Assembly (NCBI RefSeq): GCF_017348835.2
Contig: NZ_CP071375.1
Reading direction: 5' to 3' (one strand)
Length of the DNA: 64,000 bases
DNA from: Escherichia coli
GTDB lineage: Bacteria; Pseudomonadota; Gammaproteobacteria; Enterobacterales; Enterobacteriaceae
Below, one piece after another: positions 18,001 to 21,000 of the stretch (positions within the stretch are counted from its first letter, which is position 1; every line of letters begins with the position of its first letter). Position numbers: made by a program.

Positions 18001-21000
18001 TTGAAGCGCATCCCCTGGATAATGCCCGCGTAATCCGGGGCAAAGAAGGCGTTGACCTTCACGCCCAGCTTCTTCTCCATATCCTGTAAGAACGGCGTCC
18101 ATTGCGGTTTCAGGTTTTGCTGTGATTCCGTTGAAATAATGCCGAAATTCAGCGCCTTTTCCTGCTCTTCGGCGTGCGCCGGGGTTAACAGGGTGCTGAG
18201 GCTGAACATGCTGGTGAAGGCCAGCGAGGCAATTATCTTAGCGTTCATTCGTTTTCCTCAATGATGGGGATGTCAGGCAGCTTTCGCGTTCTCTTCGACG
18301 CGGTTAATGCTGCGGTAGAGATGGTCAAAACGTTCGTTATCAAACTGTTGGCTGCTGCCGTCGTAGAAGACGTGCCCCTGACGAAGGGCGACGATGCGTT
18401 CGCAGTAGCGCAGGGCGTAATCCACCTGATGCAGCGTGACGACCACGGTGATGCCGTCGTTCTGATTGATGTCGCGCAGGGTGTCCATCACGATGCGGGC
18501 GGATTCCGGGTCCAGCGAGGCGATCGGTTCGTCCGCCAGAATCACCTTCGCCTGCTGCATCAGCGCGCGGGCAATCGCCACACGCTGCTGCTGTCCGCCG
18601 GAGAGGGTGGAAACGCGCTGATGGGCAAAATGCACCATGCCAACGCGGGTCAGCGCCTGTAACGCGCGCTGTTTCTGCTCGCGGGTGAACCAACTAAAAC
18701 AGGTGCGCCAGAACGGCGTGCTGCCGAGCGCGCCAATCAGCACGTTCTCCAGTACGCTTAGGCGATTCACCAGGTTGAATTGTTGGAAGATGTAGCCGGT
18801 GTTGGCGCGGCTTTTGCGGATATCGCGCGCCAGGCGGCCATTTTGCTGGACGGTGCGGCCCAGCAGCTCGACGCGGCATTCTGGCTTTTTATCGCCGACA
18901 ATCAGGCCGCTTAAGTGACGTAAAAGGGTGGATTTGCCGGAACCGGACGGCCCAAGCAGAGCCACCATTTCACCATGATGGATATTCAGATCAACCGCGT
19001 GCAGCGCCTGATGCTGATTGAAGGTTTTGCTCAGTTGTTCGACGCGGATAATCGTTTGCATGATGCAGCCTCCCTAAAAAAGTGGCTCCATCGTGGCGGA
19101 TTATTGTGACGATTTGGTTAATTAAAAGTGACTAACAGATGAAGAGTTAACGGGAATTCGATGACAGTGCGGGAGGGCGGGCCTCCCGCGGATTATTGCG
19201 TTGGTTGTTGTTTGACGACATTAATCATCCACGGTACGCCAAATTTATCGGTGACTTTGCCGAAGCCATGCGCCCAGAAAGTTTCCTGCCAGGCCATTTC
19301 GATTTTTCCGTTAGCTGCAAGGTTATCAAACCAGCGTTTTCCTTCTTCGACCTGTTGCGAATCGAGCACCAGCGTAAAACCGGAGTAGCTGGCTTTTCCT
19401 GACGGTATAGCATCGCTCATCATGATGTCGCTTCCGGCAATACGCACGTTGGCATGAGCGATGGCAGTATCGGGAAATTGCATTCCGGAAGGGCAGCCTT
19501 CGGCGCTGTCCTGCGCTGATTTTGGCATTTCGCCGAAGCTGATTTTATAGAGCAGTTCCGCGCCCAACGTACGTTGATAATAAGCAATTGCGTCGGCACA
19601 GTTACCGGCAAAAGAGAGGTAGGGACTTAACGGCATGATGGTGACCTCAGTTAAGAGAAGCCAGTTAAGTGTAGTTCGAAATTTATACAGATGAGAGGGA
19701 AGCCTGATAAGACGCGGTCAGCGTCGCATCAGGCAGTCGGCACTGTTGCCGGATGCGGCGTAAACGCCTTATCCGGCCTACGGAGGGTGCGGGAATTTGT
19801 AGGCCTGATAAGACGCGCGAGCGTCGCATCAGGCAGTCGGCACCGTTGCCGGATGCGGCGTAAACGCCTTATCCGGCCTACGGAGGGTGCAGGAATTTGT
19901 AGGCCTGATAAGACGCGCAAGCGTCGCATCAGGCATCTGGCACCGTTGCCGGATGCGGCGTAAACGCCTTATCCGGCCTACGGAGGGTGCGGGAATTTGT
20001 AGGCCTGATAAGACGCGCAAGCGTCGCATCAGGCAGTCGGCACCGTTGCCGGATGCGGCGTAAACGCCTTATCCGGCCTACGGAGGGTGCGGGAATTTGT
20101 AGGCCTGATAAGACGCGCAAGCGTCGCATCAGGCAGTCGGCACCGTTGCCGGATGCGGCGTAAACGCCTTATCCGGCCTACGGAGGGTGCGGGAATTTGT
20201 AGGCCTGATAAGACGCGCAAGCGTCGCATCAGGCAGTCGGCACCGTTGCCGGATGCGGCGTAAACGCCTTATCCGGCCTACGGAGGGTGCGGGAATTTGT
20301 AGGCCTGATAAGACGCGCAAGCGTCGCATCAGGCATCTGGCACCGTTGCCGGATGCGGCGTAAACGCCTTATCCGGCCTACGGAGGGTGCGGGAATTTGT
20401 AGGCCTGATAAGACGCGCGAGCGTCGCATCAGGCATCTGGCACCGTTGCCGGATGCGGCGTAAACGCCTTATCCGGCCTACGGAGGGTGCGGGAATTTGT
20501 AGGCCTGATAAGACGCGCAAGCGTCGCATCAGGCAGTCGGCACTGTTGCCGGATGCGGCGTAAACGCCTTATCCGGCTTACTGATCACAATACAATCAGT
20601 TCTTTTTCACAAACTCAGATTTCAGTTTCATCGGACCAAAACCGTCGATTTTGCAATCGATGTTATGGTCGCCTTCAACCAGGCGGATGTTTTTCACTTT
20701 GGTGCCAATTTTCAGCATCGAAGAGCTACCTTTCACCTTCAGATCTTTAATGATGGTAACGCTGTCGCCGTCAGCCAGCAGATTGCCGTTAGCATCTTTA
20801 ACGATCAGCTCGTCGCTTTCCTGTGCAGGTTCTGCGTCGTTCCATTCGTAGGCACATTCCGGGCAGATGTACATGCCGTTATCTTCGTAGGTGTATTCGG
20901 AGTTGCATTTTGGGCAGTGTGGTAATGACATGTGGATTTCCTCAAAAGTCAGCAGGGCAAAAGCGCCAAAAAACGGCAGATTGCCGAAAAAGGCCGCAAT

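Follow-up and report, generated by a model that had tools for sequence, protein, structure and literature searches.

What a run of near-identical 100-bp repeats is, how it became so long, and what it does to the genes on either side are the questions raised by the region between yjdM and yjdN in this E. coli genome. We studied it in a window of 64,000 nucleotides, which is identical to the pig isolate PE164, assembly GCF_021390295.2. The first-pass annotation had described about nine tandem 100-bp REP/BIME units between phnB and phnA. Tandem Repeats Finder, the check it had named, bears this out with a single array at 19702-20581 (score 1647), in which a 100-bp period is repeated 8.8 times with 97% matches and which parses into nine Z2/Y pairs. 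We identify it as the E. coli REP325, a BIME-2 cluster and an ordinary, previously studied element that is here unusually long and varies widely in copy number among strains. The features of the locus are listed below from the yjdM side to the yjdN side.

20999..21027, minus strand: candidate sigma-70-like promoter upstream of yjdM, the best site, with 10/12 matches (consensus scan only)
20596..20931, minus strand: yjdM (phnA), the gene upstream of the array (ORF and Pfam YjdM, zinc ribbon)
19702..20581, minus strand: REP325-type BIME-2 array of nine Z2/Y pairs, i.e., 18 palindromic units, with a 100-bp period (Tandem Repeats Finder, REP and linker parsing, Rfam)
20502..20578, minus strand: unit 1, nearest yjdM, a 77-nt Y-linker-Z2 with a Y tail GTAA instead of GTAG; the boundary unit common to all alleles (Rfam, 106.8 bits)
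20402..20478, minus strand: unit 2, with the CGAG variant of the Z2 loop and the TCTGG variant of the linker (Rfam, 102 bits)
20302..20378, minus strand: unit 3, with the TCTGG variant of the linker (Rfam, 104.2 bits)
20002..20278, minus strand: units 4, 5 and 6 (20202-20278, 20102-20178 and 20002-20078), mutually identical, each exactly identical to K-12 naRNA2/naRNA4 (Rfam, 111 bits each)
19902..19978, minus strand: unit 7, with the TCTGG variant of the linker, followed by the sole variant spacer, G to A at 19891 (Rfam naRNA4 and sequence comparison)
19802..19878, minus strand: unit 8, with the CGAG variant of the Z2 loop (Rfam naRNA4 and sequence comparison)
19701..19778, minus strand: unit 9, nearest yjdN, with Z2 loop GGTCAG and without the GTAG/CTAC tail; a boundary unit also present in the one-pair allele (Rfam, 96.7 bits)
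19777..20503, minus strand: eight tail-to-tail spacers, reading CTAC-GGAGGGTGCGGGAATTT-GTAG on the plus strand, every 100 bp (19777-19803 to 20477-20503; pattern search)
19637..19690, minus strand: yjdN leader, from the array to the start codon (sequence comparison)
19193..19636, minus strand: yjdN (phnB), the gene downstream of the array (ORF and Pfam Glyoxalase/3-dmu-9_3-mt)

The assignment to BIME-2 rests on the make-up of the repeats. Pattern searches matched nine Y-type REPs on the plus strand (19748-20581; eight exact, one with a single mismatch) and eight Z2-type REPs with a GTAG/CTAC tail on the minus strand (19799-20534); a ninth Z2, at 19702-19735, lacks the GTAG tail. None of these Y REPs, tailed Z2 REPs or tail-to-tail spacers is expected in shuffled sequence. 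The nine Z2(-)/Y(+) pairs are alternately inverted around a head-to-head linker of 11 nt, as in BIME-2, and the GTAG foot tetranucleotide is present in 16 of the 18 REPs, the exceptions being the two outermost (GTAA in the Y on the yjdM side, none in the Z2 on the yjdN side). The tandem organisation typical of the family is seen in the eight near-identical 17-nt spacers, the 97% unit identity and the range of 1 to 9 pairs among strains. As expected of REPs, the sequences are extragenic, the array lying between two CDSs, and dispersed, with hundreds of REP matches per genome. The point differences that had been noticed between units are real and fall in the Z2 loop (CAAG, CGAG or GGTCAG), the head-to-head linker (GTCGG or TCTGG, and C or T) and one spacer (G or A). 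The array shares with the BIME-2 described by Gilson/Bachellier and by Ton-Hoang et al. (2012) the inverted alternating Y and Z2, the short head-to-head linker, the tail-to-tail motif, and tandem copies that are much alike within the locus and strain-variable in number; we found no difference in kind.

The Rfam model naRNA4 (RF02564) matched the array nine times on the minus strand, each time over positions 1-77 of 77, with 96.7-111 bits against a gathering threshold of 59.5. Each 77-nt unit folds into two hairpins (-42.8 kcal/mol, z = -4.8) with the spacer unpaired, and the whole 911-nt transcript reaches -474.9 kcal/mol (z = -16.7). The stem of the Y hairpin (7+4 bp) is interrupted by an internal loop and that of the Z2 hairpin (8+5 bp) by a 1x1 mismatch, in agreement with the Rfam structure line. 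Both are thus imperfect palindromes of 30-40 nt with the stem mismatch or bulge of REPs. A search for inverted repeats that required a perfectly matching seed of 9 nt gave no match at the array because REP stems are broken by mismatches; the hairpins were seen by RNA folding and by the Rfam model. On the plus strand, the Z2/Y doublet can alternatively form a single long hairpin (-43.8 kcal/mol). The tail-to-tail spacer (17 nt between CTAC and GTAG) reads UACAAAUUCCCGCACCCUCCGUA in the sense of the transcript, with 10 C and 2 G in 23 nt, and is mostly single-stranded in the predicted fold. Qian et al. name this spacer "U" and the head-to-head linker "l".

The locus is the one that carries REP325 in K-12 MG1655 (naRNA1-6 / nc5 RNA; RF02564). 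The MG1655 RefSeq record has no REP features annotated between yjdM and yjdN, and we therefore took the name REP325 from the literature. The gene order phnD-phnC-yjdN-array-yjdM-crfC is the same in the window, PE164 and MG1655, with identical left and right anchors, so that in both strains the array lies between yjdM and yjdN, on the upstream side of phnC, and is bounded by the same units. The 77-nt Y-linker-Z2 unit and the 23-nt spacer are also shared, and three units of the window are identical to naRNA4. With its architecture and the nine full-length naRNA4 matches, this orthology confirms that the units are REP/BIME elements. The two arrays differ in size, nine pairs (18 REPs) in the window versus six (12 REPs) in K-12, in the order of the variants, and in the loop of the yjdM-proximal Y REP, which is of the inner type (GTTTAC) in the window and of the terminal type (CTCGCG) in K-12. 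For annotated REP elements of K-12, numbers of 1-12 palindromic units are quoted, fewer than the 18 found here.

Both flanking genes lie on the minus strand, in tandem. The suggestion that the array might separate convergent genes is thus incorrect. The TGA stop codon of yjdM (20598-20596) is 14 nt ahead of the GTAA tetranucleotide and 18 nt ahead of the first REP stem, and on the other side around 45 nt of the yjdN leader are conserved among enterobacterial genera. The array also produces the staircase of 66-aa phantom proteins pointed out earlier: seven 66-aa ORFs on the minus strand and seven 58-aa ORFs on the plus strand, each shifted by 100 bp, with no family match in a Pfam search. The 66-aa ORFs are translation artefacts. 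One might take the 66-aa and 58-aa ORFs for genuine small proteins, given that ORFs starting with ATG or GTG recur in each unit and that PGAP at times annotates a "hypothetical protein" pseudogene at the array. Yet, they overlap one another on both strands, consist wholly of REP palindromes, lack a Pfam family, and disappear in the one-pair allele, the commonest among strains; PGAP itself marks them as frameshifted or incomplete. The chance that they are real is negligible. In genome annotation, ORFs called within the array should be treated as artefacts, and array lengths taken from short-read assemblies are untrustworthy.

Is the number of units itself correct? Short reads cannot resolve a 0.9-kb array of near-identical 100-bp units, and a shorter or longer array might have been mis-assembled into nine copies. 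But PE164 (China) and F2_81 (Australia) are independent complete assemblies that both have nine units, with the same order of variants save one converted unit, and among other complete genomes all counts between 1 and 8 occur, cleanly spaced by 100 bp. A collapse by assembly, which had been raised as a concern, is therefore highly improbable. The comparison of unit counts supports instead the other proposal, that copy number varies among strains: among ~5,400 complete E. coli genomes the length of the locus changes by exactly 100 bp per step, from one to nine pairs. One pair is found in ~55-60% of them, 2-8 pairs in most others, and nine only in PE164 and its near-clone F2_81. When we queried the flanks only, raising the joining limit from 800 to 1000 bp changed the number of genomes with joined flanks from 5368 to 5369 (net +1), and the flanks of PE164 and F2_81 were both joined at this step. 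Hence, alleles of nine or ten pairs are in essence confined to these two strains. The flanks were unjoined in ~48 genomes, which may have IS insertions, deletions or longer arrays. Strain S51, met with a synthetic query of ~30 units, has an IS1397 insertion.

The alleles form a nested series (p7-p10, p7-p8-p10, p7-p8-p4-p10, p7-p8-p9-p4-p10, p7-p8-p4-p9-p4-p10) in which whole units differ and the end units are constant. This fits in-register unequal recombination or slippage, and is the pattern expected under the first-pass proposal of expansion by unequal crossing-over or slippage. Extra units would arise by such recombination, or by replication slippage, between the 100-bp repeats, and would be homogenised by gene conversion. 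PE164 and F2_81 differ by three substitutions clustered in one array unit, whereas their flanks differ by ~2 substitutions in 24 kb (from the difference in bit score), and with these changes the F2_81 unit coincides in sequence with another one in its own array. That near-clonal isolates differ far more within the array than in its flanks shows that the units evolve in concert, and do so very rapidly. The activity of RAYT/TnpA-REP might also contribute to expansion. The Z2/Y pair is an inverted REP doublet able to fold as one long hairpin, like a REPIN, the inner REPs have the GTAG and the stem mismatch required by TnpA-REP, and RAREFAN classes REP325 as a RAYT-associated REPIN. No RAYT gene came to notice in the part of the window that was examined, and homologous unequal exchange accounts equally well for nested alleles that differ by whole units.

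The extra units may be products of drift, generated by a repeat prone to recombination or by RAYT/TnpA-REP activity; their number would have no adaptive value, and only the ancestral single pair would matter, if at all. We give this neutral or selfish expansion slightly less than an even chance. Copy number has no fixed value between 1 and 9, close relatives with identical flanking proteins have two, four or six pairs, and the nine-pair allele is restricted to one clonal lineage. The exact spacer pattern is absent from all 100,044 species-representative genomes. TnpA-REP cleaves and joins BIMEs in vitro, and variation in copy number is general in BIME-2 (Ton-Hoang et al. 2012). Against neutrality, the Rho-dependent part of attenuation in K-12 requires the full array, not 2-4 hairpins, which implies that array length measurably affects expression, and deletion of REP325 reportedly alters growth.

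REP325 is the model REP in a current debate that opposes an organiser of the nucleoid to a local regulator in a 3' untranslated region. The best explanation overall, to which we give a probability of about 80%, is that the expanded REP325 stabilises the mRNA of yjdM and acts as a partly Rho-dependent attenuator ahead of yjdN. Transcription would run along the minus strand out of yjdM in the direction of yjdN, and the array would form the 3' untranslated region of the yjdM mRNA; the sigma-70-like site at 20999..21027 is a candidate promoter for this transcript, and a consensus scan of the array itself gave no promoter-like site. Each 100-nt unit would provide two stable hairpins separated from the next by a C-rich, G-poor unstructured spacer. 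The hairpins would shield the yjdM mRNA from decay, and the array would halt most transcription ahead of yjdN, partly via Rho; protection and attenuation together would result in a high yjdM:yjdN ratio. The spacers, predicted to be unpaired and present eight times, have a composition that suggests rut-like sites for the loading of Rho. An intrinsic (Rho-independent) terminator was considered and rejected: what comes after the hairpins is ACAAAUUCCC or AACGGUGCC and not a T-run, and a scan of both strands of 19700-20580 revealed no intrinsic-terminator-like site.

Our data concern the identity, architecture and orthology of the array, its polymorphism in copy number and the nesting of its alleles, and the evidence for attenuation and stabilisation comes from the literature on the six-pair allele. 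In K-12 the yjdM/yjdN RNA ratio falls from 35 in the wild type to 1 when REP325 is deleted, yjdN increases 8-10 fold without the array, transcripts form a ladder of truncated species, and bicyclomycin increases read-through only with the full 12-hairpin array. These published experiments uphold the part of the first-pass annotation that saw in the array a barrier to transcription, the part on convergent genes having failed. The very low level of endogenous REP325 RNA in K-12 (~1-2 copies per cell, 2026 preprint) counts against attenuation; this preprint has yet to pass peer review and is at odds with previous results of one of the same laboratories. An in vitro screen for Rho binding did not recover REP325. 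Stable hairpins in the 3' untranslated region between co-transcribed genes, an upstream gene expressed above the downstream one and hairpins without a T-run are also found in REP stabilisers of the malE-malF type and in Rho-dependent BIME attenuators, from which the array differs in having far more hairpins (18). If it acts in this way, the array probably insulates yjdN, and possibly also the Pho-controlled phnC-P operon downstream, against read-through from yjdM, and nine pairs should attenuate at least as strongly as six.

The other side of the debate takes each unit for a naRNA gene (naRNA1-6 in K-12, nine here), whose product with HU would bridge REP cruciforms and condense the chromosome (Macvanin 2012; Qian 2015). 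In favour of this, each of the nine units is a match to naRNA4 of Rfam, three being identical to it, and Qian et al. (2015) reported decondensed nucleoids in the REP325 deletion, their rescue by plasmid-borne naRNA4, and 3C contacts dependent on HU and REP325. The 2026 follow-up, with Adhya among the authors, did not find a stable HU-naRNA4-cruciform complex, a change in nucleoid size on deletion or overexpression of REP325, or REP-REP contacts in Hi-C, and counted only ~1-2 copies of the RNA per cell. A single unit at this locus in more than half of E. coli genomes, and a spacer missing from the species representatives, are awkward for a core architectural role. The six-pair array of K-12, used in all experiments, is atypical, since most E. 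coli have a single pair in a natural range of 1-9, which argues against such a role being essential. We find the nucleoid reading very doubtful.

A role at the level of DNA, raised earlier as a gyrase barrier, is also unlikely, if less so. By analogy with other BIME-2, the array could contain strong, transcription-independent gyrase sites, might bind Pol I, and would then separate yjdM topologically from the phn operon, as a barrier or insulator, in a way compatible with a role of the RNA. Gyrase is known to bind BIME-2 elements as a class. In the Topo-seq paper, gyrase cleavage is strongly over-represented in BIME-2, mainly at Y REPs, and rises when transcription is blocked; the nine Y REPs of the array match a Y sequence present elsewhere in the window. 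Yet, only some BIME-2 elements are cleaved, the named loci being sucC-sucB and tldD-yhdP, and short-read mapping is unreliable within a near-identical array. A search of the text and supplements of that paper found no locus-specific gyrase data for yjdM/yjdN.

The presence of one pair in ~55-60% of genomes indicates that a long array is clearly not required. We consider it improbable that the number of units is a fast-mutating, heritable "rheostat" with the nine-unit allele of the pig lineage PE164/F2_81 as a selected extreme and not a product of drift. If it were, each added hairpin pair with its C-rich spacer would strengthen Rho-assisted attenuation and mRNA protection, and strains with 1-9 units would be at different set-points of yjdM:yjdN, and possibly of read-through into phn. 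The natural alleles are a ready-made series for relating the number of hairpins to attenuation and mRNA stability.

Related sequences occur at other places. With a 53-nt spacer query, the highest number of spacer copies was 14, reached in one genome (whole genome, any locus), and K-12-type genomes have 7-8 copies versus five in REP325, hence a few further loci carry the same spacer. Many other Enterobacteriaceae have a REP-like palindrome directly after the stop codon of yjdM. Elsewhere in the window we found an identical Y REP (11876-11909), a degenerate Y REP (39076-39109) and a Y/Z2 pair (17145-17225).

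Tandem Repeats Finder returned a single array at 19702-20581 (period 100, 8.8 copies, 97% matches, 1% indels), which sequence inspection and parsing into elements resolved into nine palindrome pairs, in agreement with the roughly nine tandem 100-bp REP/BIME units of the first-pass annotation. Each pair has a Y-type REP on the plus strand and a Z2-type REP on the minus strand, joined head-to-head by the 11-nt linker GTCGGCACCGT or variants of it, and successive pairs meet tail-to-tail at CTAC-GGAGGGTGCGGGAATTT-GTAG. Pattern searches found nine Y REPs, eight tailed Z2 REPs and eight spacers, with zero expected in shuffles. 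The outermost elements are atypical: there is no GTAG tail on the Z2 adjoining yjdN, and the Y adjoining yjdM has a GTAA tail. Numbered from yjdM, the unit types are p1-p2-p3-p4-p4-p4-p3-p5-p6, with three consecutive identical units. Isolated Y-type REPs also occur at 11876-11909 (minus strand; same sequence as the array's Y REPs) and 39076-39109 (minus strand; three mismatches to them).

Under the names REP325, BIME-2 and naRNA4, this element is already known and has been studied intensively. The yjdM-yjdN intergenic region of K-12 MG1655 contains six pairs with the same boundaries. On the minus strand, all nine units matched the whole 77-position naRNA4 model of Rfam (RF02564), with 96.7-111 bits (gathering score 59.5), and units 4, 5 and 6 are identical to K-12 naRNA2/naRNA4. 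The architecture fits the definition of BIME-2 summarised by Ton-Hoang et al., i.e., z2 and y REPs with a short linker and a flanking motif, in tandem copies that are well conserved at one locus and vary in number between strains. The REP/BIME identity proposed earlier is thus confirmed. K-12 REP elements reportedly have 1-12 palindromic units each, whereas this allele has 18. Between phnD and phnE lies a lone Y/Z2 pair (17145-17225, plus strand), which scored 69.1 bits with the same model. Since this is above gathering, the naRNA4 family detects BIME-2 pairs generally, not REP325 alone.

The features next to the array are the following.
19193-19636, minus strand: yjdN (phnB), neighbour of the array
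20596-20931, minus strand: yjdM (phnA), neighbour of the array
21027-20999, minus strand: best promoter-like site of the consensus scan, upstream of yjdM

The order yjdM, array, yjdN, phnC, with phnD beyond, runs in one direction. Both neighbours are on the minus strand and are therefore tandem genes; the first-pass annotation, otherwise essentially correct in observation and interpretation, erred in allowing for convergent ones. The staircase of 66-aa ORFs that it described does exist: the minus strand carries seven ORFs of 66 aa and the plus strand seven of 58 aa, in successive 100-bp shifts, and no Pfam family matches either set. PGAP (NCBI) sometimes calls such ORFs frameshifted 'hypothetical protein' pseudogenes in other genomes.

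Virtually every one of 5,426 complete E. coli genomes has the yjdN-yjdM locus, whose length varies by exact 100-bp steps, from one to nine pairs, as expected from the suggestion that copy number is strain-variable. We sampled 59 chromosomes at even steps through the ranking of a flank-only query, which is independent of array length.

Pairs per locus in the flank-only sample (chromosomes of 59) and in individually parsed loci
1 pair: 31/59; AHM8C212RI
2 pairs: 5/59; MINF_8D and an O157-like strain
3 pairs: 2/59; UMNK88
4 pairs: 3/59; g62
5 pairs: 7/59; BL21
6 pairs: 7/59; MG1655
7 pairs: 2/59; STK39-3-E
8 pairs: 1/59
9 pairs: PE164 and F2_81 (parsed loci)
odd length: 1/59

A first locus sample and the spacer query, which found the spacer in 2,253 of the 5,426 genomes, concordantly placed at least two pairs in ~40% of genomes. 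Public genomes already include the nine-pair allele: E. coli PE164 (pig isolate, China) matches the window at 100% identity, both at the locus and over 24 kb elsewhere. With a piece-joining limit of 1000 bp instead of 800 bp, the flanks of nine- and ten-pair alleles become joined. This change raised the number of joined genomes from 5,368 to 5,369 (net +1), with PE164 and F2_81 both newly joined, so that among joined genomes the allele is essentially confined to these two; longer arrays are possible in the ~48 genomes still unjoined at 1000 bp. Our addition is this copy-number spectrum, with one pair in most strains and nine only in one pig-associated clone. One of the ~48, E. coli S51 (NZ_CP015995.1 4526011-4528546), has an IS3-like IS1397 transposase annotated within its yjdN-yjdM REP array. 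IS1397 targets REP/BIME sequences.

A 53-nt spacer query of the E. coli genome collection gave up to 14 copies per genome. K-12-type genomes have 7-8, against five in REP325, so a few other loci share the tail-to-tail spacer. It also occurs in 26 places on plasmids and, in a BL21-RIPL assembly, beside tRNA genes close to the record end.

We also add a nested allele series and a signature of conversion. Unit typing revealed alleles with constant end units (p7-p10; p7-p8-p10; p7-p8-p4-p10; p7-p8-p9-p4-p10; p7-p8-p4-p9-p4-p10) that differ by whole 100-bp units inserted or deleted, the product that in-register unequal exchange or slippage would be expected to leave, and consistent with the mode of expansion suggested at first. 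Although PE164 and F2_81 are near-clonal (about two mismatches over 24 kb, from the bit-score difference), three substitutions separate their arrays, all within a single unit and its spacer. They give F2_81 a unit that exactly repeats one found elsewhere in its array, a signature of gene conversion. In the one-pair allele the yjdN-side Z2 is paired with the yjdM-side Y, so that it could be either an ancestor or a collapse product. Two laboratory-experiment strains from Japan, g62 and gb37, with K-12-like genome size and flanking proteins, have four pairs where K-12 has six, lacking exactly units p9-p4. Given their putative K-12 ancestry, they may exemplify copy-number change on a laboratory time scale.

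Many Enterobacteriaceae keep the yjdM-yjdN synteny, with intergenic spacers of 36-243 nt. At the nine loci inspected, a palindrome, often a species-specific REP-like one, nearly always directly follows the yjdM stop codon; this positional conservation in other genera is a further addition. Pseudocitrobacter faecalis has one Y-linker-Z2 pair resembling the E. coli one-pair allele. The exact spacer was absent from all 100,044 species-representative genomes searched. Together, these results indicate that a hairpin element after yjdM is old and that the long homogeneous array arose within E. coli. In the divergent 'Escherichia coli' SCPM-O-B-8794 (NZ_JAATUR010000012.1), yjdM is followed by two degenerate Y/Z2 pairs whose spacer has diverged (CAATTCCAGTACCAACCCAC), hence the multi-pair state may predate E. 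coli proper.

RNA-level regulation, by attenuation ahead of yjdN and stabilisation of yjdM mRNA, is the best-supported mechanism. In K-12, a 2026 preprint reported a yjdM/yjdN RNA ratio of 35 in the wild type and 1 upon REP325 deletion, an 8-10 fold increase of yjdN upon array removal, stabilisation of yjdM mRNA by the array, and a ladder of truncated transcripts. Bicyclomycin raised read-through only with the full 12-hairpin array, not with 2-4 hairpins. This account fits the anatomy because the consensus scan found neither sigma-70-like promoters nor hairpin-plus-T-run terminators inside the array on either strand, because very stable hairpins alternate with C-rich single-stranded spacers in sense orientation, and because the hairpin after yjdM is conserved in position. 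In the yjdM sense, one 77-nt unit is predicted to fold into Y and Z2 hairpins (-42.8 kcal/mol, z = -4.8), with flanking spacers largely unpaired when included, and the entire 911-nt region reaches -474.9 kcal/mol (z = -16.7 against shuffles). The transcript-sense spacer UACAAAUUCCCGCACCCUCCGUA has 10 C and 2 G in 23 nt, a composition that, in this orientation only, would be expected of a Rho loading segment. Attenuation by nine pairs would be no weaker than by six. The only mildly novel reading, which we regard as unlikely, is an expression rheostat set by the number of units.

The array was also proposed to condense the nucleoid through naRNA4 and HU, but the 2026 preprint detected neither a ternary complex nor REP-REP Hi-C contacts, saw nucleoid size unchanged, and counted only ~1-2 RNA copies per cell; that most strains carry a single unit also speaks against the array as a core architectural element. 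Of the suggested barriers to transcription or gyrase, that to transcription is supported by the attenuation in K-12. Gyrase binding is a plausible additional property: in BIME-2 elements as a class, published cleavage sites are enriched, chiefly within Y REPs and without dependence on transcription; we found no published gyrase record for the yjdM-yjdN locus. An effect of the stop-proximal REP on translation is also possible: one preprint places REP325 within the 15-nt stop-codon limit, and from the yjdM stop codon (20598-20596) the distance is 14 nt to the GTAA tetranucleotide or 18 nt to the first REP stem, depending on how the REP start is defined.

On the other side of the array, we compared the window with loci L013, L017, L033, L048, L072, L087 and L129 of other genomes. 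Within 19637-19690 (minus-strand sense), the ~45 nt directly before the yjdN start codon (GAACTACACTTAACTGGCTTCTCTTAACTGAGGT..ATG) hardly vary among Citrobacter, Enterobacter, Leclercia and Pseudocitrobacter, the remaining yjdM-yjdN spacer being variable. They may be a leader or promoter element of yjdN. Elsewhere in the window, 26248-26413 (plus strand) matches the enterobacterial sRNA family STnc630 at full length (RF02052, 181.8 bits).
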